In this document: one piece after another, positions 15,214 through 30,827 of the stretch
Position numbering within the stretch: the stretch's first letter is position 1
Layout: each line of letters starts with the position of its first letter
DNA from: Nitrospirae bacterium RIFCSPHIGHO2_01_FULL_66_17
GTDB lineage: Bacteria > Nitrospirota > Nitrospiria > 2-01-FULL-66-17
DNA: 34,902 nucleotides
Reading direction: 5' to 3'
Assembly: GCA_001803875.1 (NCBI GenBank)
Contig: MHEO01000032.1
Location: 1-34,902 of the forward strand
The notes under the pieces: generated by a model
Databases searched by the model: none
Told to the model about the DNA's origin: nothing
What the model saw: the letters and a program-made list of their open reading frames with translations, nothing else
Position numbers and translations under genes: made by a program

Positions 15214-15380
15214 CTAGGAGTATGTCCGAGTGTGGGGGCGTTGGAGCCTGTTCTTGCCCCGCAAAGCGGGCCGCGAAACGAGCGCCCGACTTCCCGGCGC
15301 GAGGCTTCGCAAGGTTCGCAGGAATGCGCCGGATGCACAGCGACAACGCAGCAGATGACCACTCATGGACAGGCTCCTAG
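15214..15380 (-). repeat. Palindromic MITE/REP-like intergenic element, copy A (inverted relative to copies C-E)
   Basis: The reverse complement aligns with copies C/D/E: CTAGGAGCCTGTCCATGAgTGGTCATCTGctGCGTTGTCGCT...GAACAGGCTCCAACGCCC...ACTCGGACAtaCTCCTAG. It fills the gap between the two FGE-like genes. Confidence 0.85.
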
Positions 15381-16177
15381 CGGGCGCACCGGAACCCGAT
15401 ATCGCGGAACCGCCGCTCCGGCGGCTGGTAGAAGCGATAGGCGGCGCGGTAAAAGTGCGGGACGGTGTAGTGGCCGGCCGATCCGCCCCAACTGCTGTTG
15501 CGCACGACCCTGAACCGCTCCCCGAACGCGGGACTCGTGTACGTCGATCCGGGGTAGGGCTGATACCAGTCGGCGACCCACTCGGACACGTTGCCGGCCA
15601 TGTCCTCCACGCCGTAGGGGCTCTTGCCCTCGGGGAAGCTGCCCACCGCAGCCAGCCCCGTGCTGCCGATGTTGCCCTTTTTTTCATCGAACGCGTTGCC
15701 CCACGGGTATTCGCGCCCGTCGGTTCCGCGCGCCGCCTTTTCCCACTCGGCCTCGGTCGGCAATCGCTTCCCGGCCCATCGGCAGAACCGATCGGCCTCG
15801 AACCACGTGATCCCCGTTACGGGCCATCGCCCCTGATCGGCCGGGAAGCGTCCGTCGGGCCAGGTGGGCGGGGCGGCCGCGCGGGTGGCGTCGACGAATT
15901 GCCGGTACTGGTCGTTGGTGGTCTCGTACACGTCGATCTGATAGGTCGGCAGGGTGACGGTGCGCTGCGGGTGCTCGTCCAGAAACCACGGCTTCGCGGT
16001 GCCGAACTCGACCCCCTGTTGGGCGGTGTCGGTCTGATCGCTCCCCATGATGAACTCACCCTGGGGGATGGTGACCATCTGTCCGGGGGAAGGAGCCGTT
16101 CCCCGCGCCCCCCCGGACAAGGGATCGCAGCCGACGATGACGATCAGCGCCAGCGGGAGGACCCGGCGCGGATTCAA
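15377..16177 (-). CDS. FGE-sulfatase fold lipoprotein, lacking the FGE catalytic Cys pair
   Basis: Lipobox LIVIVGC. Contains YETTNDQYRQF, RLPTEAEWEKAARGTDGREYPWGN, AGNVSEWVADWY and IGFRCAR. The stop codon TAG (15379..15377) lies inside the terminal CTAG of repeat copy A. Confidence 0.85.
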   Translation of the reverse strand: MNPRRVLPLALIVIVGCDPLSGGARGTAPSPGQMVTIPQGEFIMGSDQTDTAQQGVEFGTAKPWFLDEHPQRTVTLPTYQIDVYETTNDQYRQFVDATRAAAPPTWPDGRFPADQGRWPVTGITWFEADRFCRWAGKRLPTEAEWEKAARGTDGREYPWGNAFDEKKGNIGSTGLAAVGSFPEGKSPYGVEDMAGNVSEWVADWYQPYPGSTYTSPAFGERFRVVRNSSWGGSAGHYTVPHFYRAAYRFYQPPERRFRDIGFRCAR

Positions 16178-17331
16178 CGCGAAAGGCCCAATCGGTGGAA
16201 GAGGGAGCGCAGCGGCGTCCGGTCGGGGTCGGCGAACCGGCTAACGCCCACCCGCGTGCCGAACCACTTGTTGCCCTCGTCGTCCACGCCGATCGAGTAG
16301 ACGAAGTTGTCGATCAGGCCGTCGCGCGTCGTGTAGGTGCGCCAGCGGGTTCCGTCGAACCAACTGACGCCGCCATCGGTGCCAGCCCACAGAACCCCGT
16401 GGTGATCGACCGCCTGGGAGAAGACGAAGTTGCCTCCGAGCCCGTCGGCTTTGGAGTAGGTCGTCCACGAAGAGCCGTCGAATCGGGAAATCCCGCCGCC
16501 CCAGGTGCCGAACCACTTGTGGTCGCGCCGATCGACCGCGGCCGAGATCACGTAATTGGGGTTGCTCGCGGTGGCCTGTTTCGACGGGTCGATGTGGTGG
16601 GGATTGCCGAACGTGTAGTCCGGGTTCTTGACGACTTGTTCGGTCTCAAGACCGAGGCCGTCGGCGTGGGTGTAGCTCTTCCACGTCGAGCCGTCGAAGC
16701 GCGTGACCCCGCCTTCGGTGCCGAACCACATCACGTTTGCGCGATCGATGGCGATCGCGTACACCCACTTGTCGACCAGGCCCTCGTCCACGGAGTAGGT
16801 CGTAAATCCACGGCCGTCGAACAGGCTCACGCCCTTCCACGTCGCGACCCACATCCGGCCGCGGCGGTCGAAGGCGACGTCGTAGACCCAGAGGTCCCCG
16901 AGGCCCCGGCCGGGCGCGTACGCTGTCCAGGTATTCCGATAATCGGCGGGGGAACCCCATCCGTACGGGGAATACGTCGTCCAGCGGGAGCCGTCGAACT
17001 TGGCCAGGCCGCCCCCGTAGGTGCCGACCCATTTGTCGCCGTCGCGGTCGACCTCGATTGTGTAGACGCCGGTGCTGAGGAGCTGACCGCCGGTGTTCGC
17101 CGGCGTGTAGAGATCGAAGTCCCGCTCGGTGCGGAGGTCGTGGCGCATCACACCGCCGAAGAGCCCGAGCCACACGTCATGGCCCTCGAACGCGATGCTC
17201 ATCACGCGGGCGCGGGTGTTGATGGTCTGCCAGCGGGAGGAGGGGGGCTCGTCGGCGGCGAGCAGACGCAGCGTTGGAACCAGGGCCAGAGCGGCCACCA
17301 TGAGGACGAGCCACGGACGCGGAACGGTCAT
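16174..17331 (-). CDS. Secreted standalone beta-propeller of the two-component-regulator propeller (Reg_prop) type
   Basis: Signal peptide LVLMVAALALVPTLRLLAA|DEP. At least 7 repeats of W(F/V)GTxGG(V/I)(S/T)xFDG..W..Y. 4-nt overlap with the downstream FGE-like gene. No kinase or Y_Y_Y domain attached. Confidence 0.75.
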   Translation of the reverse strand: MTVPRPWLVLMVAALALVPTLRLLAADEPPSSRWQTINTRARVMSIAFEGHDVWLGLFGGVMRHDLRTERDFDLYTPANTGGQLLSTGVYTIEVDRDGDKWVGTYGGGLAKFDGSRWTTYSPYGWGSPADYRNTWTAYAPGRGLGDLWVYDVAFDRRGRMWVATWKGVSLFDGRGFTTYSVDEGLVDKWVYAIAIDRANVMWFGTEGGVTRFDGSTWKSYTHADGLGLETEQVVKNPDYTFGNPHHIDPSKQATASNPNYVISAAVDRRDHKWFGTWGGGISRFDGSSWTTYSKADGLGGNFVFSQAVDHHGVLWAGTDGGVSWFDGTRWRTYTTRDGLIDNFVYSIGVDDEGNKWFGTRVGVSRFADPDRTPLRSLFHRLGLSR

Positions 17332-17394
17332 CGAACGGTCCTGAAAAACGCCTCACTTTAGCAGAAACCCGACGAATGCCTCAAGGCAATCGCC

Positions 17395-17590
17395 CTCGGA
17401 GTGTATTCGAGTGGTGGGGTGGTAGAGCCTGTTCAGGAATGCGCCAGATGCAAGGCGGAGCGAGGAATCCACCCGGAGCGTACTGGGAGGCTCCTGGAGG
17501 TACGAGGCATTCCCGGGGGATTGCGGTCGTACGTGAGGAGGGATTCCGAAGCGACAACGCCGCAGATGGCCATTCATGGACAGGCTCTAG
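17395..17590 (-). repeat. Palindromic MITE/REP-like element, copy B (longest copy, internal expansion)
   Basis: Carries the same GGAGCCTGTYC-type termini and core (…GAATGGCCATCTGCGGCGTTGTCGCTTCGGAATCCCTCCTCACGTACG… on the reverse complement), with about 30 extra internal nt. Lies in the divergent promoter region between the propeller and porin genes. Confidence 0.75.
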
Positions 17591-17623
17591 CGTGGAGGGA
17601 AAAGTCTGCTATTCTTGGCGCGC

Positions 17624-18799
17624 ATGAGACGCGATCATCAGGGCGGATGGCGCGTGAGCGTGACGGGTTTCACCGCAGGATTTGCGTTCGCCTTTCTTCT
17701 CACCCCCGTGTACGGCGAAAGCCCACCCCCACACGACGCGGAAGGTCTCCGGCAGACGATTCGCAGTCTCCAGGACCGCATCGAGCGTCTGGAAGCCGTT
17801 CAATCGCTGCGCGACGTCGAACAGGAACACGAGGAGCTTCGGCCCCGGTTCGGCCTCAACCTCGGGGTGTTCGGGGACCTCAATGCCTCGAGCACGCCCC
17901 GAGGGCAACAGCGGCCCGCGTTCGGACTGGGCGAGGTCGGTCTGTACAGCACCGCCCGATCGGGCGACCGGTTGACGTTCCTGTTCGAGGCTGCGATCGA
18001 GGTGGACGAGGACCCCACTGAGTTCGACCTCGAACGGTATTGGGTGGGCTATGCGTTCAGCGATCGGCTCGTCGTCCGGGCGGGGCGCGTCCATACCGCG
18101 ATCGGGCATTGGAACCGCACCTACCACCACGCCCGGTACTTCTTCCCCACCATCGACCGCCCATTCGTCCTGGCCTACGACTGGGTGCTCCCGACGCACC
18201 TCGTCGGCGTCGAATTCGCCGGGACCCTGAGGCGCGGTCCGACCAGCCTCCAGTACGAACTGGAAATCGGGAACGGTCCGGAGATCGACACCGTGAATCG
18301 GGCGTTGAAGGTGACCGGCGACGTGCAGGATCGCGCGCGATCCAAGCAGGCGGCGCTCCGAATCGTCGGCCGCCACGCCGCCCTGCCCGGCCTGACCGTC
18401 GGCCTCTCGGGAACGACCTACGCGTTCGACGTCCCGTCGCTTCGGGAATCGGTTATCGGGATGGAGGTCGCGCGGTCGGGGGCGCGCGTCGAGTGGATCG
18501 CGGAGGGCTGGCGTCTTGCCAACCCCTCGGCCGTCGCCTGGGCGGGGTATCTGCAAGGGGCCTGGAAACTCCGGGAGGCGACGGCGCCCTTTGCGCGGTT
18601 CGAATGGTTGGAGACGGACGCCGCCGATCCCTACCTGGGCGCGCTGAACGCGGCGGTCGACCGTCACCAACTGATCGCGGGGGTTCGCCACGACGTGGAC
18701 CCGTTGCACAGCGTGGTGAAGGCCCAGTACCGACGGGATTCGCGGGCCGACGACCATATCCGCCACATGGCCGAACTCCAATGGGCATTCGGCTTCTAG
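17624..18799 (+). CDS. Outer-membrane beta-barrel porin (OmpL-like/bbp2 or phosphate-porin-like) with N-terminal coiled coil
   Basis: Signal-like N-terminus FTAGFAFAFLLTPVYG. Coiled coil LRQTIRSLQDRIERLEAVQ. Alternating beta-strand pattern. C-terminal aromatic barrel signature ...AELQWAFGF. Start could be ATG 17624 or TTG 17615. Confidence 0.7.
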   Translation: MRRDHQGGWRVSVTGFTAGFAFAFLLTPVYGESPPPHDAEGLRQTIRSLQDRIERLEAVQSLRDVEQEHEELRPRFGLNLGVFGDLNASSTPRGQQRPAFGLGEVGLYSTARSGDRLTFLFEAAIEVDEDPTEFDLERYWVGYAFSDRLVVRAGRVHTAIGHWNRTYHHARYFFPTIDRPFVLAYDWVLPTHLVGVEFAGTLRRGPTSLQYELEIGNGPEIDTVNRALKVTGDVQDRARSKQAALRIVGRHAALPGLTVGLSGTTYAFDVPSLRESVIGMEVARSGARVEWIAEGWRLANPSAVAWAGYLQGAWKLREATAPFARFEWLETDAADPYLGALNAAVDRHQLIAGVRHDVDPLHSVVKAQYRRDSRADDHIRHMAELQWAFGF

Positions 18800-19290
18800 C
18801 GTTTGCAGTCGTCCGGCGAGTTGATGGCCGCCGAACCGGGGCCGCAGGGTGGCCGGCGGTGGTCGTGCTGTGCCTGCTGGCGGCGCTGGCGGGCGCGGGG
18901 GGCGCGTCCGCGGTGCGGGCCGAAGACCTCGCGGTGATCGTCAACGCCGGCGGTTCCCTGACCTCGCTCACGCTGCCGGATGTCCGCGCGCTGTATCTCG
19001 GCGAGCGACAGTTCGTCGGCCCCGAGCCGGTCGTGGTGCTCCACCTGCCGGAGGGCGACGTGAAGGCGGCGTTTCTGTCCCGTGCTGTCGGTCGGACGCT
19101 CAAGGAGTACAAGCTCCATTGGCTGCAGCGCGTCTTCCAGGAGGGCGCCACCCTGCCCACGGTGGTGGCGGGACCCGAAGCGATGGTCGGCGTGGTGGCG
19201 ACCCGCCGCAACAGCGTGGGATACGTCCCGGCCTCGCTGGTCCGGGATACGCCGGACGTGAAGATCCTCTTCGTGGTGCCCTCGCCGTGA
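18781..19290 (+). CDS. Small periplasmic PstS/PBP-like-2 type substrate-binding domain protein
   Basis: ATG 18781 overlaps the porin stop. Signal peptide ...LCLLAALAGAGGASAVRA|ED. DLAVIVNAGGSLTSLTLPDVRALYLGE...VGYVPASLV resembles the phosphate-binding-protein-like fold. The track start at 18040 is read-through inside the porin gene. Confidence 0.6.
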   Translation: MGIRLLAFAVVRRVDGRRTGAAGWPAVVVLCLLAALAGAGGASAVRAEDLAVIVNAGGSLTSLTLPDVRALYLGERQFVGPEPVVVLHLPEGDVKAAFLSRAVGRTLKEYKLHWLQRVFQEGATLPTVVAGPEAMVGVVATRRNSVGYVPASLVRDTPDVKILFVVPSP

Positions 19291-21077
19291 TCCTGAGCCT
19301 CCGCACCAAGCTCACCGTGGTGTTTCTGGGCGCGGCGATGGTCGCGATAGTCGTCGTCGCCGGCATGATGTTCGTGGTCCGAGATCTGGCGGCGAGCGTC
19401 CACGACATGGAGCGGCTGGCGGCGAGGATCAGCCTGACCGACCGACTTCAGCTCGAATTGAGCCGCCTGCTCGTGCCCCTCAACGACTACCTTCTGACCG
19501 AGGACGTCACGCACCGCGACGCGTTCGACCGGTCGATCACCGACGTCTCCCGGCGGTTGAACGAACTGCAGCATCTCGATGGGGGGATCGAGTGGACCAC
19601 GGTCGCGCGCGAGATCAACGATCGGGTGATCCGGTTGGGGACCATGTCGGTCGACGTGCTCTTCGTCGACCGGCCGGTCGGCAATCCCGACGTGATCCGG
19701 TTGATGCAGGACGTCAATCGTCTGTCCGACGACATCATCGGCCGAGCGTCGCGGCTGCATCGGCTCGCGGCCGACGACATGGCGGGGCGGGAGAAGATCG
19801 CCGCCGCCAACTCGGCCCATGTCGATCGCCTGCTCATCGGCGTGGTGCTCACGGCGCCGCTCTCGTTGATCGCGTTCTACCTCCTCCTCACCCGGTGGGT
19901 GACGAAGCCCCTGCTGACCCTGCATCGGGGCGTGCTCGACTTGAAAGCCGGTCGATCGGCGCGGATCGTGGTTCAGGTTCCGGACGAGATCGGTGAAGTC
20001 GGGCAGGCCTTCAACGATCTGGCCGACCACCTCAGCGCATCGCAGGAGCAGGTGCAGCAGAACACGCGGCAACTCGAAGCGCTCTACACGGCCAGCCGCG
20101 CGCTGAGCAAGGAGAGCTCGCGCGAGGTGCTCTATCAGACGTTGACCGACCTGGCGCGTTCGTTGACGGAGTCCCGCTACGCCGTGCTCGCGCTCTTCAA
20201 CGACGAGGAACGGGTCATCCAGGTGGTCGAGTCCGGCGTCGCGCCGTTCGCCGCCGGGTTGTCGGATGCGGGGATCCGCGAGATGATCGCCAGGCTGCCC
20301 CGGAGCCGCCGTCCGCTTTGTATCGGCGAGGAGGGTGACGACTCGCGGTTGAGAAGTCTGCCGTGCTCCCCCCCGCTGCGCACGCTGCTGGCGGTGCCGC
20401 TGTTTGCGGAAACCGCGTTGCGCGGCGAACTCTACGCGATGCAGAAGATCCATGGTACATATACGACGGCCGATCAGGACCTCGTCGCCACGATTGCCCA
20501 CGACGCCTCGCAATCGCTCAAGGTCATCCGACTGCATGAGGAGGCCGAGCGGCTGGCGACGATCGACGGCTTGACCGGTTTCGCCAACCGCTGGGCGTTC
20601 GAGGACCGCCTGGCGGAGGAATTCATGAAGGCCGGCCGCCACGCGAGACCGTTCGCGCTCATTTTCAGCGATCTGGATCGCTTGAAGGAAATCAACGACC
20701 GCTGCGGCCACGCGACCGGCGACGCGGCGATTCGTCGGTTCTGCGACGCCATCCGCGCGAGCATTCGGACGACGGATATCGTCGGGCGGTATGGCGGCGA
20801 TGAACTCCTCGTGCTCATGCCCGAAGCGGTGCTGGACGACGCCCTGATCGTGGCGGAACGCATCCTCCGGCGCCTGGCGGGCGTGCCCTTCACGGCCGAG
20901 GGCCAGACGATGACCCTGACCGCGAGTCTCGGCGTGGCGGCCTATCCCGAGCACGCCCGGGATAAGGAGGGGCTGTTGCGGGCGGCCGACTACGCCCTCT
21001 ACCAGGCGAAGACCCTGGGACGGTCCCGGGTCCACACGTTTCAGGCGTCCGCCGGAGCGAAGAGTCCCCGGGGCTGA
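19287..21077 (+). CDS. Membrane sensor diguanylate cyclase (2 TM, helical periplasmic region, HAMP, GAF, GGDEF)
   Basis: GTG 19287 overlaps the upstream stop (GTGA). TM1 LTVVFLGAAMVAIVVVAGMMFVV. HAMP (WVTKPLLTLHRGVLDLKAG...EIGEVGQAFNDLADHL). GAF (LLAVPLFAETALRGELYAMQK). GGDEF domain DGLTGFANRWAF...RYGGDELLVLMPE, in which the signature reads GGDEL. The track start at 18849 is read-through. Confidence 0.85.
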   Translation: MILSLRTKLTVVFLGAAMVAIVVVAGMMFVVRDLAASVHDMERLAARISLTDRLQLELSRLLVPLNDYLLTEDVTHRDAFDRSITDVSRRLNELQHLDGGIEWTTVAREINDRVIRLGTMSVDVLFVDRPVGNPDVIRLMQDVNRLSDDIIGRASRLHRLAADDMAGREKIAAANSAHVDRLLIGVVLTAPLSLIAFYLLLTRWVTKPLLTLHRGVLDLKAGRSARIVVQVPDEIGEVGQAFNDLADHLSASQEQVQQNTRQLEALYTASRALSKESSREVLYQTLTDLARSLTESRYAVLALFNDEERVIQVVESGVAPFAAGLSDAGIREMIARLPRSRRPLCIGEEGDDSRLRSLPCSPPLRTLLAVPLFAETALRGELYAMQKIHGTYTTADQDLVATIAHDASQSLKVIRLHEEAERLATIDGLTGFANRWAFEDRLAEEFMKAGRHARPFALIFSDLDRLKEINDRCGHATGDAAIRRFCDAIRASIRTTDIVGRYGGDELLVLMPEAVLDDALIVAERILRRLAGVPFTAEGQTMTLTASLGVAAYPEHARDKEGLLRAADYALYQAKTLGRSRVHTFQASAGAKSPRG

Positions 21078-21128
21078 CGCCCCCTGTCCCAGTTGCCGCC
21101 GACCGCCGGTTGACACACCACGACGCCT

Positions 21129-21743: not shown

Positions 21744-21784
21744 TCGACCGGCTGTCCCCGTGGCCAGCCGCCATCCCGCGGCGC

Positions 21785-21868
21785 GCCGGCGTGGCGGAAT
21801 AGGCAGACGCAAGGGACTTAAAATCCCTCGGGGGCAACCCCATCCCGGTTCGACCCCGGGCGCCGGCA
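21785..21868 (+). tRNA. tRNA-Leu (anticodon UAA)
   Basis: Manual cloverleaf. Acceptor GCCGGCG/CGCCGGC plus discriminator A. Anticodon arm AGGGA-CTTAAAA-TCCCT (anticodon TAA). Long variable arm GGGG-CAA-CCCC (class II). T arm CCCGG-TTCGACC-CCGGG. CCA is not fully encoded. Confidence 0.85.
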
Positions 21869-21964
21869 CCCGCAAGAACGCGTCGCCCGACGACGTCCTC
21901 ACGGTCGACCTCCACGTCCGTTCCCCCTCGCGCGGCGCGGATGTCCCTTCGTTCTCGTTTCTCG

Positions 21965-23333: not shown

Positions 23334-23336
23334 CCT

Positions 23337-24223: not shown

Positions 24224-25036
24224 GTGAACGCGGCTGATCTGGAAGCCCACGTCGGACTGATTCGCTCGCTGGCGGCGTTTGGCGGGCTGGGGCTCCTGCT
24301 CGCGCTCGAAGCGTGGCGGCCGTTTCGCGCGCCCGTGCAGGCCAAGCTCGGCCACGTCGCCGTCAATCTCAGCGTCGCGGGGACGAATGCGGTCGCGGTC
24401 AACCTCGTCTTCGGCGGGCTCCTCTTGCTGTGGGCCGGGCGCGCGTCTGATGCGGGGTGGGGCCTCTTTGCCGCCCTCGGGCTTGGCGGCGCGCCGCGCG
24501 TCGCGGCCTCGATCGTCGCGCTGGACCTGATCTTCTACGGCGTCCACTGGGCGAATCACCGTGTCCCCGTTCTCTGGCGCTTCCACCGGGCGCATCACAG
24601 CGATCTGGATTTCGACGTGACCACCGCGCTCCGCTTCCACCTCGGGGAGGTGCTCGTCTCCACGGGGGTGAAGGCCGCGTGCATTGTCGCGCTCGGCGTG
24701 CCGCCCCTGGGGCTCGCGGTGTTTGAGATGATGTTGCTGGCCGCCGCCCAGTTTCAGCACAGCAACCTGCGCCTGCCGGGACCGTGGGACGCGCGCCTCC
24801 GCGCGCTGATCGTCACGCCCGACATGCACCGCATCCACCACTCGCGGGTGCCCACCGAGCACAACGCCAACTTCGGCACGATCTTCTCGGGCTGGGACCG
24901 CCTGATCGGCACCTACCGGATGGCGGTGCGCCAGGAGGACATCGCGATCGGCCTGGCGTCGTATCCCTCGCTCGACCGGGTGACCTTTCTCTGCTTCTGG
25001 GGTATGCCGTTTGGACCCGGCTGTCGGCAAGGCTAG
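24224..25036 (+). CDS. Fatty acid hydroxylase / sterol desaturase family membrane di-iron enzyme
   Basis: Histidine boxes HWANH, HRAHH and HRIHH plus several TM segments. GTG start. The TAG stop lies inside the first CTAG of repeat copy C. Confidence 0.8.
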   Translation: MNAADLEAHVGLIRSLAAFGGLGLLLALEAWRPFRAPVQAKLGHVAVNLSVAGTNAVAVNLVFGGLLLLWAGRASDAGWGLFAALGLGGAPRVAASIVALDLIFYGVHWANHRVPVLWRFHRAHHSDLDFDVTTALRFHLGEVLVSTGVKAACIVALGVPPLGLAVFEMMLLAAAQFQHSNLRLPGPWDARLRALIVTPDMHRIHHSRVPTEHNANFGTIFSGWDRLIGTYRMAVRQEDIAIGLASYPSLDRVTFLCFWGMPFGPGCRQG

Positions 25037-25210
25037 GAGCCTGTCCATGAAGGGTCATCTGCGGCGTTGTCGCTTCGGAATCCCTCCTCACGTACGAACC
25101 AGTACGCTCCGGGGGGATTCCTCGCTCCGCCTTGCATCTGACCCTTCCTGAACAGGCTCCCGCGAACGGGGGGCAGGCTCAAACGCCCGATGACTCGGAC
25201 GGGCTCCTAG
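25033..25210 (+). repeat. Palindromic MITE/REP-like element, copy C
   Basis: CTAGGAGCCTGTCCATGAAGGGTCATCTGCGGCGTTGTCGCTTCGGAATCCCTCCTCACGTACGAACCAGTACGCTCCGGGGGGATTCCTCGCTCCGCCTTGCATCTGACCCTTCCTGAACAGGCTCC then ...GGGCAGGCTCAAACGCCCGATGACTCGGACGGGCTCCTAG. Long imperfect hairpin plus tail. Confidence 0.85.
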
Positions 25211-25252
25211 GACGCGTCGCCCGTTCGCGGTTCGGCCGGAACCAGGGTTGCC

Positions 25253-25281
25253 TTGCTTTCAGGCGGCCGCTGTGCTATACA
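25253..25281 (+). promoter_or_regulatory. Sigma-70-like promoter for rpsF operon (TTGCTT-N17-TATACA)
   Basis: Hexamers with 17-nt spacing, about 60 nt upstream of the rpsF ATG and just downstream of repeat copy C. Confidence 0.5.
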
Positions 25282-25342
25282 TTCTCCCTTCATTGCGCTC
25301 GCCTCCGGGGTAAGGGCGCCAGAATGGGAAGGAGCAGGTTGC

Positions 25343-25741: not shown

Positions 25742-25744
25742 GTC

Positions 25745-26188
25745 ATGGTGAGCTTCAACAAAGTCATCCTGATGGGCAACCTCACCAAGGATCCGGAGGT
25801 TCGGTTCACGCCCGGCGGGACGCCGGTCGCCACGCTTGCCCTGGCGGTTAATCGACGGTACAAGCAGGGCGAGGAGCTCAAGGACGAGGTGTGCTACGTC
25901 GACGTGGTCGTGTTCGGCAAGCAGGCGGAGAATTGCGGGCAGTATTTGAGCAAGGGCCACGGCGTGATCATCGACGGCCGATTGCAGCAGCGTCGATGGG
26001 AAACCGACGACGGCCAGAAGCGCAGCAAACACGAGGTCGTCGCCCAGACGGTCAACTTCCTGCCGAAGCGGGATCCCTCGGCTGCCGCAGGCGCGGCGGC
26101 CGCCATGACCGCGACCGGCGCCAAGCCGTCTCTGGCCGTCGACGCGACCCCCGGCGAAGAGTTTGTCGAGAACGACGTGCCGTTTTGA
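25745..26188 (+). CDS. ssb: Single-stranded DNA-binding protein
   Basis: FNKVILMGNLTKDPEVRFTPGG OB-fold N-terminus, flexible Ala/Gly tail and C-terminal acidic tip ENDVPF. Confidence 0.9.
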   Translation: MVSFNKVILMGNLTKDPEVRFTPGGTPVATLALAVNRRYKQGEELKDEVCYVDVVVFGKQAENCGQYLSKGHGVIIDGRLQQRRWETDDGQKRSKHEVVAQTVNFLPKRDPSAAAGAAAAMTATGAKPSLAVDATPGEEFVENDVPF

Positions 26189-26234
26189 TGCGATGAGCGA
26201 TCGCGGCCGTCACCGTTTGTCATAAGGAGTCGAT

Positions 26235-26540
26235 ATGCGACCAACCACCCCCACCTCCTCTTCGTCGTCCCCGGCGCCGGCCGGCGCCAAGGATTCCCGG
26301 AGCGGGCCGGGCCAGGAGCGGAAGTTCTTCAGCCGGCGCAAGGCGTGCCGGTTTTGCACCGACAAGGTCGCCGGCATCAACTACAAGGATGTGCCGACCC
26401 TCCGCAATTTCCTGACGGAGCGCGGCAAGATCATGCCGCGGCGCATCTCCGGCAACTGCGCGATCCATCAGCGGGCGTTGACCACGGCCATCAAGCGGGC
26501 CCGCAACATCGCCATGGTCGCGTTCGCCGAAGAGCGATAG
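26235..26540 (+). CDS. rpsR: 30S ribosomal protein S18 (with Ser/Pro-rich N-terminal extension)
   Basis: [61 protein letters not shown]. Confidence 0.9.
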
Positions 26541-26576
26541 CCCTCGACGGCGGAAGCGGGGTCTTGCGGGAGACCG

Positions 26577-27041
26577 ATGGCCCGGCTTCAGACGAAGACC
26601 CTCTGGCTCATCACCGCGGCCGCTGCGGCGCTCGTCCTCCTGCTGCAGTTCTGTCCCGCCGCTCGCCGTCACAACGTCTTGACGCTCACCCTGTCGCAGG
26701 ACACGCTGGCGATCGACGTGGCCGACTCGCCCGAGCGTCGCTTATTCGCGCTCGGGATGCTCGACCGCTTCCGCCCCGGGCGCGGCCTCCTGCTCGTCTT
26801 CGACGACGGCACCCCGCCCCGCGTCTGGTCGAAGGCGCTCCAGGTGGAGGCGGACCTGCTGTGGCTTGACGAGACGCGGCAGATCGTCGGCCTCGATCTG
26901 AGCGCGCGTCCGTGCACCCAGGATCCCTGCCCAGAATACTCCCCCGAGCGCGGCGCCGTCTCCGTCCTCGTGCTGCCGCCGGGATCCGGGCGGGACGCGG
27001 CGCTGGCGCCGGGTCAGACCGTGTTTCTGCAGCCGGCGTAG
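26577..27041 (+). CDS. DUF192 (COG1430) family protein with signal/anchor
   Basis: N-terminal hydrophobic LWLITAAAAALVLLL. Core LAIDVADSPERRLFALGMLDRFRPGRGLLLVFDD...LLWLDETRQIV resembles the DUF192 pattern. The TAG stop lies inside the start of repeat copy D. Confidence 0.6.
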   Translation: MARLQTKTLWLITAAAAALVLLLQFCPAARRHNVLTLTLSQDTLAIDVADSPERRLFALGMLDRFRPGRGLLLVFDDGTPPRVWSKALQVEADLLWLDETRQIVGLDLSARPCTQDPCPEYSPERGAVSVLVLPPGSGRDAALAPGQTVFLQPA

Positions 27042-27217
27042 GAGCCTGTCCAGGAAGAGCCATCTGCGGCGTTGTCAGTCGGCCTTGCGTGCTCACGTAC
27101 GAACCAGTACGCTCCGCGCGCAAGGCCTCCTTCCGCCTTGCATCTGGCCCTTCCTGAACAGGCTCCCGCGGACGCGGGGGCAGGCTCCAACGCCCGATGA
27201 CTCGGACAGGCTCTTAG
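27038..27217 (+). repeat. Palindromic MITE/REP-like element, copy D
   Basis: TAGGAGCCTGTCCAGGAAGAGCCATCTGCGGCGTTGTCAG...CCTTGCATCTGGCCCTTCCTGAACAGGCTCCCGCGGACGCGGGGGCAGGCTCCAACGCCCGATGACTCGGACAGGCTCTTAG. The core is divergent, while the arms and tail are conserved. Confidence 0.85.
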
Positions 27218-27248
27218 GAGGAGGTCGGCGTTGCGCGGGTTTCGCCCG

Positions 27249-27292
27249 CCGCCTGGCCGAATCTTGCAAGCCAGGCGGCAAGTTGCTATAGT
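27249..27292 (+). promoter_or_regulatory. Near-consensus sigma-70 promoter (TTGCAA 27264-27269, N17, TATAGT 27287-27292) embedded in a 9-bp inverted repeat CCGCCTGGC/GCCAGGCGG
   Basis: Hexamers and spacing read directly from the sequence. The IR arms (27249-27257 and 27270-27278) bracket the -35, suggesting an operator. Lies 25 nt upstream of the PilZ gene start. Confidence 0.6.
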
Positions 27293-27316
27293 GCGACGAT
27301 ACCGAAAGGGGTGAGC

Positions 27317-27907
27317 ATGGCCAAGGCGAAGCCGACGACAACCCGCAGCACGCGACGAACCCCGGCCAAGGGGCGTTCGTCCGCCGCCGGCTCGTCCTCC
27401 GGCACGTCCTCCCCCCCGGCTCGCAAGACCCGCACCCCGGCCCGGATCGGCCGGACCGTATCCCGGACGGCATCGAAGAACGGGGCGCCATCCCGGCGCG
27501 CGAGCCCCCCGAAGCCGAAAGCGGTCCGCCCTCCTTCGGGGCCCGAGCGCCGGGAGAGCGAGCGCTCGCCGATGATGGTCCTGGAGATCAAGGGCAAGCA
27601 CTACGACAAGATCTTCATCGGGTACGCGGATAACATCAGTCGAAGCGGTCTGTGTTTCTCGGCCGCGAACCCCCCCGCCGTGGGGACCACGTTTCCCGTC
27701 GAGTTTGTGTTGCCGGACAACCGGACGATGGTGCAGTGCACGTGCCGCGTGGTCTGGCAGCGTCGGTACGAGACGACCGGTCGGCCGTCGGTCGGGGTGG
27801 GCGTGGAATTCGTGGATCTGGATCAGGCCAAGCGCCAGTTGATCGACCAATGGGTCAAACGCAAAACGCGCCTTCCGCGCGGCGCGTCGCCGGACGCGGG
27901 CGGCTGA
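27317..27907 (+). CDS. PilZ-domain c-di-GMP receptor with long basic, low-complexity N-terminal tail
   Basis: RxxxR-like ERRESER followed by D/NxSxxG (ADNISRSG) and a beta-barrel segment (FPVEFVLPD...CRVVWQRR...GVGVEFVDLD). The N-terminal ~85 aa are rich in K/R/S/T/P/A. Start at ATG 27317 or GTG 27311. Confidence 0.75.
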   Translation: MAKAKPTTTRSTRRTPAKGRSSAAGSSSGTSSPPARKTRTPARIGRTVSRTASKNGAPSRRASPPKPKAVRPPSGPERRESERSPMMVLEIKGKHYDKIFIGYADNISRSGLCFSAANPPAVGTTFPVEFVLPDNRTMVQCTCRVVWQRRYETTGRPSVGVGVEFVDLDQAKRQLIDQWVKRKTRLPRGASPDAGG

Positions 27908-27920
27908 TCGGGGAGCGGGG

Positions 27921-28481
27921 ATGAACCCGACGGCGACGACGAGCCGCCGTGTCGCCGGGCTCCGACGCCACGCTCGGTCCGCGCTGTGGCTGGCGGCGGG
28001 GGCGCTCCTGTATGCGGCGTGGACCCACGCGCCGTGGGCGTACCGTGCCGCGGGATCCGCGGGGGTCGAGGAGGCGCTGGTCTCCCGCGCGATCGACGGC
28101 GACACGATCGAGCTCGCCGACGGCGAGCGGGTCCGGTACATCGGGATCGACACCCCGGAACTCTACCGCCGCTCGGGGTCGGAGTGGGTCTACCGGCCCC
28201 AGCCGCACGCCGAGCAGGCCTGGACCTTCAACCGGCGGGCGGTCGAAGGCCGCACCGTCCGGCTCGAATCCGACGTCGAGCGCCGCGACCGGTTTCAGCG
28301 CCGCCTGGCCTACGTCTACCGGGATGGCCGCCTCGTCAATGCGGATCTGGTGGAACAGGGGTTGGCGAGCGCGATGACGATCCCACCCAACACGCAGCAC
28401 GCCGATCTGTTCCGCCGTCTCGAGCGCGAGGCCCGCGACGCGGGTCGTGGCCTCTGGGCGACCGAGGGGGCTTCACCGTGA
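27921..28481 (+). CDS. Membrane-anchored thermonuclease (staphylococcal nuclease, SNase-like)
   Basis: N-terminal TM SALWLAAGALLYAAW. SNase motifs AIDGDTIELADGERVRYIGIDTPE, then RFQRRLAYVY and NADLVEQGLA...EREARDAGRGLW. Confidence 0.85.
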   Translation: MNPTATTSRRVAGLRRHARSALWLAAGALLYAAWTHAPWAYRAAGSAGVEEALVSRAIDGDTIELADGERVRYIGIDTPELYRRSGSEWVYRPQPHAEQAWTFNRRAVEGRTVRLESDVERRDRFQRRLAYVYRDGRLVNADLVEQGLASAMTIPPNTQHADLFRRLEREARDAGRGLWATEGASP

Positions 28482-29011
28482 TCCGCTTCCCGCGAAGGGT
28501 CCATCGCCGTGCGTCCTTGGCGCAGGCCGGATTGCTACGCGATCCGCAGGGAAGGAGAGGGTTACATTCCGCGCCCTTGGCGCACGCCGGATTGCTGCGC
28601 GATCCGCATGGAAGGAAAGGATTACATTCTGCGCCCGTGGCGCAGCTCGGATTTACATTGATCGAGATCATGATCGTGATGGCGATCATGGGCATTCTCA
28701 TCACGATTGCCGAGCCCTCCTACCGCGCTCAGACCATCAAAGCCCGCGAGACCGCGCTCAAGAAGGATCTGTTCGTGATGCGGGACGTGATCGATCAGTA
28801 CGCAGCCGACCACGCGCGCTATCCCGAGTCGCTCACAACCCTGGTGGACGAGTCCTACCTCCGTGGCCTGCCGGTCGACCCGTTCACCGGCGCCTCGGAT
28901 ACGTGGATCGAGATCCGGGAAGCCGAAGGCGAGGAGCCCGGCGGCGTGTTCGACGTGCACAGCGGGAGCAACCGCGTGGCGCTCAACGGGACGGCATACA
29001 ATGAGTGGTGA
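28478..29011 (+). CDS. GspG/PulG-like major pseudopilin (prepilin-type N-terminal methylation domain) with unusually long repeated leader
   Basis: Mature N-terminus G|FTLIEIMIVMAIMGILITIA, followed by a GspG-like body (KARETALKKDLFVMRDVIDQYAADHARYPESL...YLRGLPVDPFTG). The longest start is GTG 28478 (GTGA overlap with the SNase stop). Alternative starts are TTG 28592 and GTG 28637 (the latter gives MAQLG|FTLIE). Start unresolved. Confidence 0.8.
   Translation: MIRFPRRVHRRASLAQAGLLRDPQGRRGLHSAPLAHAGLLRDPHGRKGLHSAPVAQLGFTLIEIMIVMAIMGILITIAEPSYRAQTIKARETALKKDLFVMRDVIDQYAADHARYPESLTTLVDESYLRGLPVDPFTGASDTWIEIREAEGEEPGGVFDVHSGSNRVALNGTAYNEW
28481..28650 (+). repeat. Tandem 60-bp repeat (about 2.8 units: partial 28481-28530, 28531-28590, 28591-28650) encoding the GLLRDPxGRxGLHSAPxAxxG leader module
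   Basis: Units ATTGCTaCGCGATCCGCAgGGAAGGAgAGGgTTACATTCcGCGCCCtTGGCGCAcgcCGG and ATTGCTgCGCGATCCGCAtGGAAGGAaAGGaTTACATTCtGCGCCCgTGGCGCAgctCGG are in frame with the pseudopilin. A fourth, dispersed unit lies at 29018..29080. Confidence 0.85.
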
Positions 29012-29555
29012 GGGCGGGTTGCTTCGCGATCCGGATGGAAGGAAGAACTGTTTTCATTCTGCGCCGTCGGCGCAGGGCGGATTTTCCTATCTCTTTGCGC
29101 TGTTTGCCATCGTCCTGGTGGGGCTGAGCATGATGGGGGCGAACGCGCAGTGGAAGACGATGATGCAACGGGAGCGCGAGGTGGAACTCCTGTTTCGAGG
29201 CGATCAGTACCGGCGCGCCATCAAAGCCTACGTGGAAGCCGTCTCGGCGGCGAAGCAATATCCCCTCCGCGTCGAGGATCTGCTCAAAGACCCGAGGACG
29301 TCCAAGCGCCACCTCCGCGCGCTGTATCCCGACCCGATGACCGGGGAGGCGCTCGCTCCGGTGCTGTGCGGCAATGGGCGTGTCAAAGGGGTGGCCAGTT
29401 CCAGCGAAGCGGCCACGCTCAAGCGGGACAACTTCCCTCCGGCGTACGCCCAGTTCACCTCCGCCACGACGTACCGGCAATGGATCTTTCAGTACGACCC
29501 GTCGCAGGTTCCCGCGCAGCCGGGTCAACCCCAGCCTCCCCCGCCGCCCTGTTGA
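29001..29555 (+). CDS. Prepilin-type N-terminal domain protein (minor pseudopilin-like, no Glu+5)
   Basis: ATG 29001 overlaps the preceding gene by 11 nt. Leader MSGEGGLLRDPDGRKNCFHSAPSAQGG|FSYLFALFAIVLVGLSMMG. Pro-rich C-terminus. Confidence 0.65.
   Translation: MSGEGGLLRDPDGRKNCFHSAPSAQGGFSYLFALFAIVLVGLSMMGANAQWKTMMQREREVELLFRGDQYRRAIKAYVEAVSAAKQYPLRVEDLLKDPRTSKRHLRALYPDPMTGEALAPVLCGNGRVKGVASSSEAATLKRDNFPPAYAQFTSATTYRQWIFQYDPSQVPAQPGQPQPPPPPC
29018..29080 (+). repeat. Dispersed copy of the 60-bp pseudopilin-leader repeat (63 bp, in-frame 3-nt insertion)
   Basis: GTTGCTTCGCGATCCGGATGGAAGGAAGAACTGTTTTCATTCTGCGCCGTCGGCGCAGGGCGG aligns with the units at 28531-28650. Confidence 0.8.
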
Positions 29556-29558
29556 CCG

Positions 29559-30674
29559 ATGGAGACGCTCTCTGCGTGGCGGCATCACGTGGGCCGCGCG
29601 GCGCGTTCCGCGTGGCGCAGCCCGACGATCCGGCGCTACGCGCCCGCCACGGTGGTCATCCTGGGGATCGCCGCCGCGCCGTTTGCGCTGATCGCCTTGC
29701 TCGGCGAATCGACGACGTCGAGCGTCGCGCCCGAATTGGCGGGTCTCCAGGGATGGATCTCGTCCGAGCCGGTGACGCTCGCGGCGCTGCGGGGCAAGGT
29801 CGTGATCGTCGACTTCTGGACCTATAGCTGCATTAACTGTCTGCGGACGATCCCATACTTAAACGCCTGGGACGAACGCTACCGCGATGACGGCCTGGTG
29901 ATCATCGGTGTGCACAGCCCCGAATTTGCCTTCGAGCGGGACCCGGGGCGCGTGGAGCGCGCGGTGCGGCGCCTCCAGATCCGCTATCCGGTGGCGATCG
30001 ACAGCGACAAGCGCACGTGGCGCGCGTACGCCAATCAATACTGGCCCCACAAGTACCTGATCGACCGCGGGGGCAACATCCGCTACGAGCAGATCGGGGA
30101 GGGGGGGTACCGGGAGACGGAGCAACACATCCGTGAATTGTTAGCCGAGGACGGCCGCGATCCCGGCCCGGCGTCCGCCGAGGTCCAGCCGGAGGCCGTG
30201 GACATCAAGGCGATCGCCACGCCCGAGATCTACCTGGGAACCTATTTCGGCCAATTCCTGGGCAACCCGCTGGGGCTGCGTGGGATGCGCGCGGCGGTCT
30301 ACGACGAGCCCGAGACGATCGAACCGAACCTGTTCTACCTGGTCGGCCGGTGGGCCGCCGGCGAGGAGGCGATCGCCTCGGTGGGGTCGGGGGACCACAA
30401 GATTATCCTTCGGTATACCTCCCGGGCGGTCAATCTTGTGGCGGGCGCGCCCGGGCGGGAGCTCGATGTGGAGGTCCTGCGGGACGGCCGGCCGCTGACG
30501 GTCGAGACCAAAGGGGCCGACGTCGTGATCGACGCGCGCGGCCGGGCCGTCATCCGAGTGGGCGAGGAGCGGCTGTACCGGCTCATCGACGACCGGGCCG
30601 GTTACGGGACGCACACGGTGACGGTGATCGTCGACCGGCCGGGCCTGGAAGCGTACACGTTCACATTCGGATAG
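29559..30674 (+). CDS. Membrane-anchored thioredoxin-fold protein, DipZ C-terminal-domain-like (CxxC = CINC) with C-terminal beta-sandwich
   Basis: TM VVILGIAAAPFALIALL. VVIVDFWTYSCINCLRTIPYLNAWDERY...GVHSPEFAFE...WPHKYLIDRGGNIRY matches the DipZ/redoxin pattern. The ~170-aa C-terminal domain ends ...LEAYTFTFG. The TAG stop lies inside repeat copy E. Confidence 0.75.
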   Translation: METLSAWRHHVGRAARSAWRSPTIRRYAPATVVILGIAAAPFALIALLGESTTSSVAPELAGLQGWISSEPVTLAALRGKVVIVDFWTYSCINCLRTIPYLNAWDERYRDDGLVIIGVHSPEFAFERDPGRVERAVRRLQIRYPVAIDSDKRTWRAYANQYWPHKYLIDRGGNIRYEQIGEGGYRETEQHIRELLAEDGRDPGPASAEVQPEAVDIKAIATPEIYLGTYFGQFLGNPLGLRGMRAAVYDEPETIEPNLFYLVGRWAAGEEAIASVGSGDHKIILRYTSRAVNLVAGAPGRELDVEVLRDGRPLTVETKGADVVIDARGRAVIRVGEERLYRLIDDRAGYGTHTVTVIVDRPGLEAYTFTFG

Positions 30675-30827
30675 GAGCCTGTCCATGAATGGTCATCTGT
30701 TGCGTTGTCGCTTCGGAATCCCTCCTCACGTACGACCAAGTACGCTCCGGGGGGATTCCTCACTCCGCCTGGCATCTGACCATTCCTGAACAGGCTCCAC
30801 CACCCCAATACTCGGACACACTCCTAG
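30672..30827 (+). repeat. Palindromic MITE/REP-like element, copy E (shortest; tail partly deleted)
   Basis: TAGGAGCCTGTCCATGAATGGTCATCTGTTGCGTTGTCGCTTCGGAATCCCTCCTCACGTACGACCAAGTACGCTCCGGGGGGATTCCTCACTCCGCCTGGCATCTGACCATTCCTGAACAGGCTCCACCACCCCAATACTCGGACACACTCCTAG. Exactly intercistronic. Confidence 0.85.

Follow-up and report, generated by a model that had tools for sequence, protein, structure and literature searches.

A high-copy, hairpin-forming element of Nitrospirota, classed as an IS5-superfamily-type MITE and co-oriented at stop codons

The IS5 group of the IS5 family duplicates a 4-bp target, YTAR (CTAG). Correia/NEMIS of Neisseria, ERIC of enterobacteria and RUP of S. pneumoniae are non-coding elements of 100–200 bp with terminal inverted repeats (TIRs) and a TA in the duplicated target, present in tens to hundreds of copies, and their strong stem-loop is co-transcribed with the neighbouring genes (PMC2229807, PMC3733652). 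RUP is mobilised by IS630-Spn1 via shared TIRs and TA targets (PMC2229807). GTAG REPs and REPINs have a hairpin, kept by compensatory change, with a head containing TAG immediately 5' of it; they are present in high copy number and lie downstream of ORFs, where the head is often the TAG stop itself (PMC3733652). Ribosome stalling is reported for REPs that lie no more than 15 nt from a stop codon (PMC12306157).

The element examined here was found in a window of 34,902 nt from Nitrospirae bacterium RIFCSPHIGHO2_01_FULL_66_17 (GenBank accession number MHEO01000032.1; coordinates 1 to 34902). It resembles Correia/NEMIS, ERIC and RUP in the above respects, with co-transcription as a probable further likeness, and, as for RUP and IS630-Spn1 (PMC2229807), shared TIRs led to a partner IS, here for a sister subfamily. 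It differs from them in having asymmetric ends (a single box at the left end but two or three at the right), a hairpin closed by an internal box rather than by two transposon ends, a related IS of the IS5 family, a core that is more conserved than the TIRs, and ~78% of its copies in a single orientation at a stop codon or no more than 9 nt from one. A TAG in the target is shared with IS5-family ISs that use CTAG/YTAR targets (loci L096 and L098–L105). However, the element lacks a transposase gene and these ISs lack the hairpin core, the ends of the window's subfamily (A) begin GAGCC whereas the IS ends begin CAGG, and TA or TAR (2–3 bp) is duplicated where the ISs duplicate CTAG (4 bp). The likeness to GTAG REPs and REPINs extends to the position and sequence of the head, the compensated hairpin and the copy number, but the unit is 124 nt and not a 20–40-nt palindrome with an unpaired GTAG head, it has true TIRs and a TA(G) repeated at each end, the vicinity of 110 copies yielded no RAYT, and a sister subfamily has ends in common with a DDE element.

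A sequence-only reading of the window had placed five copies in it, and all five were confirmed: A (15214–15380, reverse strand), B (17395–17590, reverse), C (25033–25210, forward), D (27038–27217, forward) and E (30672–30827, forward). A 20-base core pattern, GAGCCTGTCCANGANNNGNCATCTG, has exactly five matches in the window and none in 100 shuffles. The common architecture that was described holds, with a terminal (N)TAGGAGCCTGTCC, arms of ~27 nt and a tail ending in CTCCTAG, as do the nested stems (GGAATCCC/GGGATTCC and CGTAC/GTACG). The box said to occur up to four times per element does so in C and D, where an extra tail insert of ~22 nt, also carried by the allele of D in locus L040, is the source of the fourth box. 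Copy E had been thought to have lost part of its tail, which is wrong, as A, B and E have the canonical family tail. The expansion noted in copy B is a 40-nt insert in the apical loop that was found again in L040, and the recurrent peptides ascribed to the elements are indeed artefacts of the ORF track, exemplified by the ORF at 30689–31558 that starts at an ATG inside copy E.

The TAG of copy C (25034–25036) is the stop codon of a fatty-acid hydroxylase gene (24224–25036). Its hairpin core (25036–25160) has the inner stem type GGAATCCC, and its tail, with the extra box, ends in CTCCTAG at 25210 and is followed by rpsF. In copy D, the TAG (27039–27041) is the stop of a DUF192 gene (26577–27041), the inner stem of the hairpin core (27041–27166) is of type GGCCTTGCG, which is compensatory relative to C and E, and the tail, also with the extra box, ends in CTCTTAG. 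Copy E starts on the TAG stop (30672–30674) of a thioredoxin-like gene (29559–30674) and has its hairpin core at 30674–30798 and a canonical tail ending in CTCCTAG at 30827, which is followed by GAGCGCCG and the ATG of a DUF420 gene (30836). Copy A is rearranged. Its TAG (15377–15379) is the stop of an FGE-sulfatase gene (15377–16177, reverse strand), and it retains an intact left arm, GAGCCTGTCCATGAGTGGTCATCTG, the closing box AGAACAGGCTCC and a tail ending in CTCCTAG (15214–15220); the interior has been replaced and does not fold into the family hairpin any more, and the copy was missed by the covariance model. The next FGE-sulfatase gene has its start codon (15203) 10 nt beyond it. Copy B, with its hairpin core at 17424–17588, is located in a divergent intergenic region (17332–17653) away from any stop codon, and has a left junction CTA/GAGCC, with one G missing, and a tail end CTCCGAG.

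Read 5' to 3', the element of 150–200 bp consists of TAG, an imperfect hairpin of ~124 nt, a 30–50-nt tail, a terminal box with the inverted sequence of the 5' end, and TAG. In a full element TA(G) is followed by the left inverted repeat (GAGCCTGTCC...) and the hairpin, which is closed by an internal inverted copy of the left repeat (GAACAGGCTCC), then by a spacer of 13–40 nt, the right inverted repeat (GGACAnnCTCC) and TA(G). There is therefore one box at the left end and two or three at the right. In copies A–E and most JACQCD copies, the left terminal repeat (GAGCCTGTCC) is the inverse of the right one, GGACA(G/C)(G/A)CTC, over 10–11 nt. The hairpin is 122–126 nt long in 72 of 97 copies and is followed by AACACCCC..., without T runs. 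The base preceding TAG in the NTAG head is C in 25 copies, G in 20, T in seven and A in three, and in full copies the head pairs with the far right end. The right repeat is not recognisable in many copies of more distant MAGs, and the hairpin is still intact in copies in which this repeat has decayed.

Further copies were found, more than 110 in 0.64 Mb from five Nitrospirota MAGs. The covariance model identified 111 distinct copies in 637 kb, and there were 126 nhmmer matches, the copies occupying more than 85 loci in these MAGs. They are scattered on both strands beside housekeeping genes, including those between oppositely oriented copies, and the flanking genes have unrelated functions. 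DNA read depth was 276–1217 at element positions and 5–10 in the flanks, and this ratio suggests ~50–130 copies per genome-equivalent.

The proposal that this is a non-autonomous mobile element (MITE/REP-like) or a structure-selected RNA was supported: further copies and compensatory changes were found and a match to a catalogued family was not, the three points on which it could have failed. Mobility is seen directly in empty-site alleles of related strains. Copy E is precisely absent (153 nt) from contigs of DNA runs X2 and X5, where TAGGAGC fits both sides, and copy D is absent from one RNA contig, one DNA contig and a second copy of the locus in L040, so that presence or absence is polymorphic within populations. 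Orthologous empty sites in other species have ...TAG... in five of eight cases, and seven such sites were found in addition to the empty alleles of D. The target is TAG or, more rarely, TAA; after insertion TA(G/A) flanks the element on each side, with agreement between the left and right trinucleotides (~30 TAG/TAG and three TAA/TAA pairs). As the base before the trinucleotide differs between the two sides, the duplication is 2–3 bp and not 4 bp; the recent copy E, for example, has ATAG on the left and CTAG on the right, unlike the 4-bp YTAR (CTAG) duplication of the IS5 group. Some IS5-family groups use 3-nt targets (PMC2516522). REPs and REPINs make no duplication, whereas here TA(G/A) is on both sides and co-varies, and a TA(G) repeated on either side of the element favours the DDE type over a REP/RAYT one. 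Terminal inverted repeats, a target duplication visible in filled versus empty sites, small size, high copy number and no coding capacity are all features of a MITE, and the element has each of them. The mini-ORF that starts at the internal ATG is not conserved; its length ranges between 18 and more than 70 codons, and 10 copies lack this ATG.

The link to a transposase was provided by a sister subfamily. Locus L096 carries an IS of 1.3 kb that encodes a 366-aa transposase (DUF772 and DDE_Tnp_1), has the TIR CAGGGTGCTGAAAAAGTC and is flanked by CTAG, and its relatives in L098–L105 have identical ends and a CTAG/CTAG duplication; one of them (L104) is also on a TAG stop codon. Subfamily B hairpins have outer arms, CAGGCTGCTGAAAAAGTC, around a core common with subfamily A, and these arms are the TIRs of an IS5-family IS (CAGGnTGCTGAAAAAGTC) from the same population. 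The box layout of subfamily B (left, internal, right) is that of subfamily A, and one copy (L069) has a CTAA/CTAA duplication. The arms of A, C and B form alignable intermediates of one another, through which the subfamily A arms can be aligned to the IS TIRs. The element is therefore classed as an IS5-superfamily-type MITE, because a sister subfamily with the same core has IS5-family TIRs as its outer arms. An autonomous IS with GAGCCTGTCC ends was not found in 85 loci, and a metagenome scan for the arm joined to non-hairpin sequence gave seven matches, all MITE copies, with no autonomous subfamily A IS. No RAYT/Y1 partner, which the sequence-only reading had named as one thing to look for, was found in 0.66 Mb around 110 copies, where no ORF with an HUH...Y motif was seen and a tblastn search, using an approximate E. 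coli YafM query, gave no RAYT match at E<0.7. An IS5 control query in tblastn did recover the L096 transposase.

Other classes of element were also considered. Integron attC sites lie in a cassette array in one orientation and have R''/R' core sites (RYYYAAC / GTTRRRY). This class was rejected, as the copies are dispersed on both strands next to housekeeping genes and inspection of the alignment showed no GTTRRRY core at the hairpin base. An intrinsic terminator (a GC-rich stem with a U run after it) was likewise rejected, as the U run is missing and no terminator-like site is present inside the five copies on either strand. A search against Rfam 15 at the gathering score gave no matches in the window, L060 or L012; around copy C, only one chance match of 5.4 bits was seen at E<=10. 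Classical GTAG-headed REP palindromes of 28 nt were observed in the same genomes, and these insert into the apical loop of the element.

The most distinctive property of the element is its position. In 73 of 94 copies (~78%) its start falls –1 to +9 nt past the stop codon of an upstream gene in the same orientation, against 2.4% under random intergenic placement (p about 2e-98). The stop codons at these junctions are TAG in 55 cases, TAA in 10 and TGA in eight, compared with a background of 250 TGA, 168 TAG and 114 TAA, and there is an offset of 1–8 nt in 27 of the 73, which have no TAG of their own. The TAG stop is often provided by the termini of GTAG REPs as well (PMC3733652). The orientation bias is roughly 10:1, and between convergent genes the hairpin end is at a stop codon in 20 copies and the tail end alone in 0–2. 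As 144 unoccupied TAGs are at stop codons and 774 are intergenic, target availability alone predicts ~20% of copies at stops, not 78%.

The hairpin is also under an unusual pattern of conservation. Compensatory changes, which had been proposed as a check on the stems, were found in 30 of 46 hairpin pairs, the observed values being reached in none of 500 shuffles, and 96% of cells in the hairpin alignment are paired. The earlier view that the arms are conserved and the interior varies holds within the window's subfamily but not across subfamilies, where the arms vary and the core sequence, including the letters of its internal loops, is conserved in A–D despite their different ends. For a MITE it is unusual that the core should be better conserved than the transposon ends, and this suggests some constraint besides transposase binding. 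It is possible, though on balance unlikely, that the element is a host-serving cis-acting RNA module for which mobility is the means of spread. The stem-loop at the stop codon would then control termination or ribosome rescue, block 3' exonucleases or Rho loading, or bind a protein, and selection on the core would create the stop-codon and orientation rule. The conserved, compensated core, its survival where the right repeat has decayed, a position rule far above that predicted from target availability and the ribosome stalling reported for REPs within 15 nt of stops (PMC12306157) are consistent with this. Copies are also found at orthologous sites in species with flanks just 71–86% identical, but their hairpins are conserved no better than the flanks and often differ in inner stem type, which looks like replacement or gene conversion and not like conservation of a copy where it sits. 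Similarly, the element is present in metatranscriptome assemblies, but its RNA element-to-flank depth ratio (~37–370) is within the range of the DNA copy-number ratio and so gives no sign of a stable, separately accumulated RNA. The unrelated functions of the flanking genes, and the fact that the better-paired strand is the antisense strand and not the mRNA, also argue against such a role. A bolder version, which we regard as doubtful, is that the element homes to stop codons in fixed orientation by sensing the gene end and not a DNA word, the ~85-nt core common to several subfamilies with different ends acting as a mobile cis-regulatory module through which termination, ribosome rescue or the fate of the mRNA is determined at ~100 genes per genome.

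Pairing is better on the strand antisense to the upstream gene. In 91 of 97 copies this strand has the greater stability, the mean difference being 9.9 kcal/mol, and C.A and U.C/C.U on the sense strand correspond to fixed G.U pairs and tandem G.A/A.G mismatches on the antisense strand. Together with compensatory change, this asymmetry is expected of a single-stranded intermediate, as would occur if the element were REPIN-like and a Y1 (HUH) transposase of RAYT/TIRYT type moved it as single-stranded DNA. The (N)TAG 5' of the hairpin foot would then be equivalent to the GTAG head, insertion would be strand-specific and 3' of TAG, and the right-end TAG would be part of the element and not a duplication. 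The TAG head does abut the hairpin foot and the element does lie 3' of ORFs and supply their stop, as for GTAG REPs (PMC3733652), its orientation specificity is strong, a parent IS with the same ends was not found, and the REPs in the apical loop indicate that a hairpin-loop-targeting activity exists in these genomes. However, the exact TIRs of a DDE IS5-family element in subfamily B, the presence of true terminal inverted repeats, the co-variation between the trinucleotides on the two sides (TAA with TAA) expected of a duplication, the 0.66 Mb with neither an HUH-motif ORF nor a RAYT match, and the length of the unit (124 nt versus a 20–40-nt palindrome) make this improbable. The same strand asymmetry could reflect a family of antisense small RNA genes, with the strand that folds better as the product, transcribed antisense to the upstream gene's 3' end, but this is very improbable, as ~100 copies would each require a promoter, no promoter-like or terminator-like sites are present in or beside the elements on either strand, no Rfam family is matched, the RNA contigs carry no direction, and a single-stranded DNA form equally explains a pairing advantage of one strand.

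An IS5-type MITE that is moved in trans by a DDE transposase, with a hairpin derived from a palindromised end and a stop-codon placement that has two causes, is the probable explanation overall. The window's subfamily would be moved by a related DDE transposase with matching ends. The hairpin may have arisen as a palindromised IS end and been maintained as a single-stranded structure. Placement at stop codons would arise firstly because the asymmetric ends fit the non-palindromic TAR target in one orientation, and secondly because the only insertions to survive are those that spare genes and promoters, genes surviving an insertion at the stop because the duplication regenerates the stop codon. 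Once in place, the element would be co-transcribed as a very stable stem-loop right after the stop codon, and by analogy with REPs within 15 nt of stops this should affect termination and mRNA fate. Several findings stand against this explanation. The IS relatives duplicate 4 bp (CTAG) and the window's subfamily TA or TAR, an autonomous IS with GAGCCTGTCC ends turned up neither in the 85 loci nor in the metagenome scan, and DDE cut-and-paste gives no ready reason for an orientation bias of ~10:1. The share of copies at stops in excess of that predicted from target availability, the 27 offset copies with no TAG, the many copies in more distant MAGs whose right repeat is not recognisable, and a core better conserved than the ends also count against it.

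The element is thus of an ordinary kind with one unusual habit, its co-oriented seat at stop codons. To our knowledge, no such MITE superfamily has been described in Nitrospirota, to which a well-characterised, high-copy one is now added. Spurious ORFs and breaks in metagenome assemblies result from these elements, and short contigs bearing them seem to be placed in the wrong bins (L040 and L085), hence recognising them helps annotation and binning; their copies can also serve as presence/absence markers in strain tracking. Stop-codon placement and a core that outlasts the ends make this a natural system for studying how a DNA transposon picks gene ends, and how a very stable stem-loop after a stop codon affects translation and mRNA decay. 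If the stop-codon rule is mechanistic, it would represent a new kind of target selection, and if it is selective, it would be a measure of how tightly compact genomes filter insertions.

The five copies of the element were confirmed in the window at 15214-15380 (-; copy A), 17395-17590 (-; B), 25033-25210 (+; C), 27038-27217 (+; D) and 30672-30827 (+; E), and a 20-base core pattern gave five exact matches in this 65.7% G+C sequence but none in 100 shuffles. When the copies are co-oriented, the common reading is (N)TAG-GAGCCTGTCCATGA..CATCTG..., a long imperfect hairpin, then ...CATCTG..CCTGAACAGGCTCC, and the tail closes with ACTCGGACAnnCTCC-TAG. One hairpin of ~125 nt (z -5 to -7; -70 to -111 kcal/mol) is formed by each of copies C, D and E; the interior of copy A is rearranged, and the apical loop of copy B is enlarged by a 40-nt insert. 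The description given in the sequence-only reading was accurate overall, with the direction of one tail change reversed: nothing has been lost from copy E, said there to lack part of the tail, and copies C and D have gained an extra box-bearing insert of ~22 nt.

The 40-nt insert of copy B (CGCAATCCCCCGGGAATGCCTCGTACCTCCAGGAGCCTCC; window 17470-17510) is identical to one in the apical loop of a copy in another locus, L040 (about 2105-2145), and was also seen in RNA contigs. Further nested inserts recur, one kind (CGACCCACCTTCAAAAATCGAAATG..GGAAGTCCCCGAAGGGGGC) within the 3' arm and another (GGAAGCAACATTCGTCCGTCACGCTAGA) outside it, and the hairpin is either a target of small insertions or a gene-conversion donor. 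Classical REP-like units, perfect palindromes of 28 nt headed by GTAG (GTAGGGGCRYR....YRYGCCCCTAC), form a separate family that was found in loci from other genomes (L013 at 3800, L018 at 5102, L027 at 6203, L031 at 5838, L033 at 3932, L041 at 1482, L047 at 5644, L055 at 2736 and 4487, L062 at 6409 and L081 at 7821), and several of these palindromes are nested within, or substitute for, the apical loop of the hairpin element.

The hairpin element is mobile. In contigs from the metagenome DNA runs X2 and X5, position 30671 is joined directly to 30825 and copy E is exactly absent (153 nt), with TAGGAGC fitting either side. Copy D is missing from one RNA contig, from one DNA contig and, in L040, from the second copy of the locus, which is inverted, and the orthologous sites of seven more copies are empty in other species. 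The empty orthologue of the copy E site reads GGATAGGAGGGGCGGATG and the filled site GGA-TAG-[GAGCC...ACTCC]-TAG-GAGCGCCGATG. Across the copies, the trinucleotide on the left matches that following the right repeat (TAG/TAG in about 30, TAA/TAA in 3), whereas the base preceding these trinucleotides shows no agreement between the two sides, hence the element duplicates TA or TAR and not four bases. A 4-bp CTAG duplication was rejected for subfamily A, the type found in the window, as the base before TAG differs between sides.

A scan with the exact pattern, using one genome per species, found at least 85 loci, nearly all in five Nitrospirota MAGs (JACQCD01, CAZMYW01, JBMOMC01, JBMOMD01 and JBDSOK01). 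Searches with nhmmer gave 126 hits, and a covariance model identified 111 distinct copies in 637 kb. The window itself was detected in groundwater and soil metagenomes, and in four metagenome DNA runs the depth was 276-1217 at element positions versus 5-10 in the flanks, which suggests roughly 50-130 copies per genome-equivalent, an upper estimate as related populations contribute depth. A further high-depth bin at 21785-21870 is due to a tRNA-Leu gene (anticodon TAA) located there. The element was also found on contigs of ~3 kb labelled Thermoplasmatota (L040; DATEUP010000029) and Rokubacteria (L085; JAHFDK010000474), both of which are probably mis-binned. L040 shares 93-94% identity with the window around copy D and includes filled and empty alleles in inverted order; the element repeat has probably made it a chimeric assembly.

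A link to a transposase was found in L096, a strain variant of the window locus, which carries a 1.3-kb IS (3734-5036) directly after the right-hand CTAG of copy E. This IS encodes a 366-aa DUF772 + DDE_Tnp_1 (IS5-family) transposase, and has TIRs CAGGGTGCTGAAAAAGTC and duplicated CTAG flanks; an inverted second element comes after it. Its relatives (L098-L105) share 73-83% protein identity, have identical ends and are bounded by CTAG on both sides, and the one in L104 occupies the TAG stop codon of the gene upstream. The CTCCTAGG ends of the hairpin element create CTAG targets, which are otherwise rare in this GC-rich genome.

The TIRs of the L096 IS are also the outer arms of hairpins in the same MAGs that form a sister subfamily, B (CAGGCTGCTGAAAAAGTC-CATCTGCTGCGTT...CACGTACG...GCATCTGGAGCTTTTTGAGCAGCCTG). 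Subfamily B shares its core with the window's element, as well as the order of its parts (left box, internal inverted box, spacer, right box), and one of its copies is flanked by a CTAA/CTAA duplication. The arm of subfamily C (TGAGGCTGCTGATGAACGGCCATCTG) is intermediate between the arms of B and A, and subfamily D has different arms again (CTGGCCGCCGAGAAG-type) around the same core. Copies of the sister subfamilies were located in L012 (2224-2420), L034 (597-719), L064 (3046-3168), L069 (4334-4456), L072 (3063-3185) and L075 (7352-7475), as well as at L074 6406, L076 2138, L028 278, L082 6584 and L058 6692, and none within the window. The shared IS5-type TIRs and core are the strongest evidence that the family consists of IS5-superfamily MITEs.

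The L096 IS was rejected as the direct parent of subfamily A because the TIRs differ, and is instead the partner type of subfamily B. An autonomous IS with subfamily A ends (GAGCCTGTCC...) was not found in the loci; a scan of the loci for stray TIRs using the 27-nt arm recovered one rearranged MITE, in L073, and a metagenome scan for the 27-nt arm joined to non-hairpin sequence gave seven matches, all of them mutated MITEs. Neither a motif scan nor tblastn with an approximate RAYT query identified a RAYT (Y1/HUH) partner in the loci around the copies, and the genes flanked by oppositely oriented copies are housekeeping genes.

Compensatory change in the hairpin was assessed in an alignment of 86 copies that was fitted to the model and thus leans towards it. 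Standard pairs occupy 96.1% of cells, versus 83.5% in shuffles and 27-38% in slid controls. Changes on both sides were seen in 30 of 46 pairs (459 cells), and none of 500 shuffles reached the observed value of any measure. Despite the lean of the alignment, pairs such as one with CG 23, GC 19, UA 18, UG 12 and AU 10 are unambiguous. Three or more types of inner stem replace each other (GGAATCCC, GGCCTTGCG and GCGCTTCCGG), and the core letters CATCTGCNGCGTTG, CTCACGTACGANCCAGTACGCT and CGCCTTGCATCTG are common to subfamilies with differing arms. In two pairs of loci from sister species (L059/L065 and L063/L075), the tails and flanks are orthologous and the inner-stem types differ. The hairpins of orthologous copies are 80-82% identical, no higher than their flanks, a pattern that resembles copies replacing or converting one another more than conservation in place.

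The strand antisense to the upstream gene is predicted to be the more stable in 91 of 97 copies using RNA parameters (mean 9.9 kcal/mol) and in 94 of 97 using DNA parameters, with 95.8% of its cells paired versus 90.3% for the sense strand. The antisense strand includes fixed U.G/G.U pairs and tandem G.A/A.G mismatches, the sense counterparts of which are C.A and U.C/C.U. Mutational bias was rejected by argument as the source of the antisense G.U pairs: C-to-T change linked to transcription or replication, acting on the sense strand, would create wobbles on that same strand, the opposite of what was observed. The better antisense pairing in these predicted folds suggests that a single strand of antisense polarity, whether DNA or RNA, is the form that folds.

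The genes around the window copies were mapped using G+C by codon position, supported by Pfam. In four of the five copies, the terminal TAG serves as stop codon for the gene upstream, which encodes an FGE-sulfatase (15377-16177, - strand) for copy A, a fatty-acid hydroxylase (24224-25036) for C, a DUF192 protein (26577-27041) for D and a thioredoxin-like protein (29559-30674) for E. Copy B is located between divergent genes, and the downstream gene is co-directional with the element in all five cases. Copy A is all that separates two adjacent FGE-sulfatase paralogues (14388-15203 and 15377-16177; ~71% identity over stretches, signal peptides in both): it touches the stop of one, and the other starts 10 nt away. 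A promoter-like site (TTGCAA-17-TATAGT with TG upstream; 27264-27292) is found 47 nt past copy D and before a PilZ gene, placing copy D between a stop codon and the next promoter.

Other repeats were noted in the window. Two tandem paralogous genes (4579-7758 and 7962-11207; about 1,050-1,080 aa, 76-89% DNA identity) have weak Pfam matches of multihaem-cytochrome type (Cytochrome_C7, MtrC/MtrF domain and PSCyt3). A 60-nt tandem repeat at 28511-28653 (2.4 copies, 86% matches), with a third partial copy 430 nt downstream (29045-29084), surrounds a small gene (28637-29011) with a prepilin-type N-terminal methylation motif, and every repeat unit includes the palindrome GCGCC..TGGCGC.

Placement at stop codons extends to the family. 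Among 94 copies with a called upstream neighbour, this gene was co-oriented in 76, and in 73 of these GAGCC begins -1 to +9 nt after the end of the stop codon (directly adjacent in 46), against 2.4% expected from random intergenic placement (p about 2e-98). The gene downstream of the 73 stop-adjacent copies is co-oriented in 49, convergent in 20 and off the locus in four, indicating that the rule applies to the stop codon upstream. Where the neighbouring genes converge, the stop is always touched by the hairpin end and not by the tail end, and a stop codon at the tail end only was seen in about five to seven copies. The junction stops are TAG 55, TAA 10 and TGA 8, versus a background of TGA 250, TAG 168 and TAA 114, and at eight empty sites the stop is TAG in five, TAA in one and TGA in two (background TAG 25-30%).

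Extended target words (CTAG, TAGG, TAGGA and TAGGAG) were rejected as the cause of this preference, as each has too small an effect on the stop-to-intergenic ratio. There are 144 unoccupied TAGs at stops versus 774 in intergenic sequence, and TAG availability together with loss of genic insertions predicts about 20% of copies at stops, not 78%. In 27 stop-adjacent copies, the stop is offset by 1-8 nt and the element lacks its own TAG. The preferred reading would combine fit and survival: the non-palindromic TAR target may accept the asymmetric ends (one box versus two or three) in one orientation, and the survivors would be only those at sites where the duplication restored the stop codon and no promoter was hit.

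In metatranscriptome assemblies, element depth was 37-370x that of the flanks, within the range of the DNA copy-number ratio, and one RNA contig spans the empty D site. These observations, made on undirected contigs in every RNA run with the locus, fit co-transcription with neighbouring genes. The element had no match to a catalogued RNA family in Rfam, either at the gathering score or at E<=10, and promoter and terminator scans found nothing inside the elements. A conserved mini-ORF, opening with GGAG-N7-ATG in the left arm and reading across the hairpin as a translational bridge, was rejected because ORF length and frame differ among copies and 10 copies have no such ATG.

An attC/integron reading was rejected on layout. 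The non-autonomous mobile element (MITE) proposed from sequence alone is supported by the copy number, the empty sites and the IS5-type TIRs of a sister subfamily, and, on the tests run, the element is a hairpin-forming bacterial MITE, probably derived from the IS5 superfamily, working in the manner of Correia/NEMIS, ERIC and RUP (PMC2229807, PMC3733652). Like GTAG-headed REP/REPINs, it supplies TAG stops and is positioned downstream of ORFs (PMC3733652), but it departs from the REP definition in unit size, the presence of TIRs and target duplication. The analogy with REPs located no more than 15 nt from a stop codon (PMC12306157) suggests that the element should influence termination. The class of the element is ordinary. 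Known explanations for MITEs do not cover the rule on stop codons and orientation, the antisense bias in pairing or a core more conserved than the ends.
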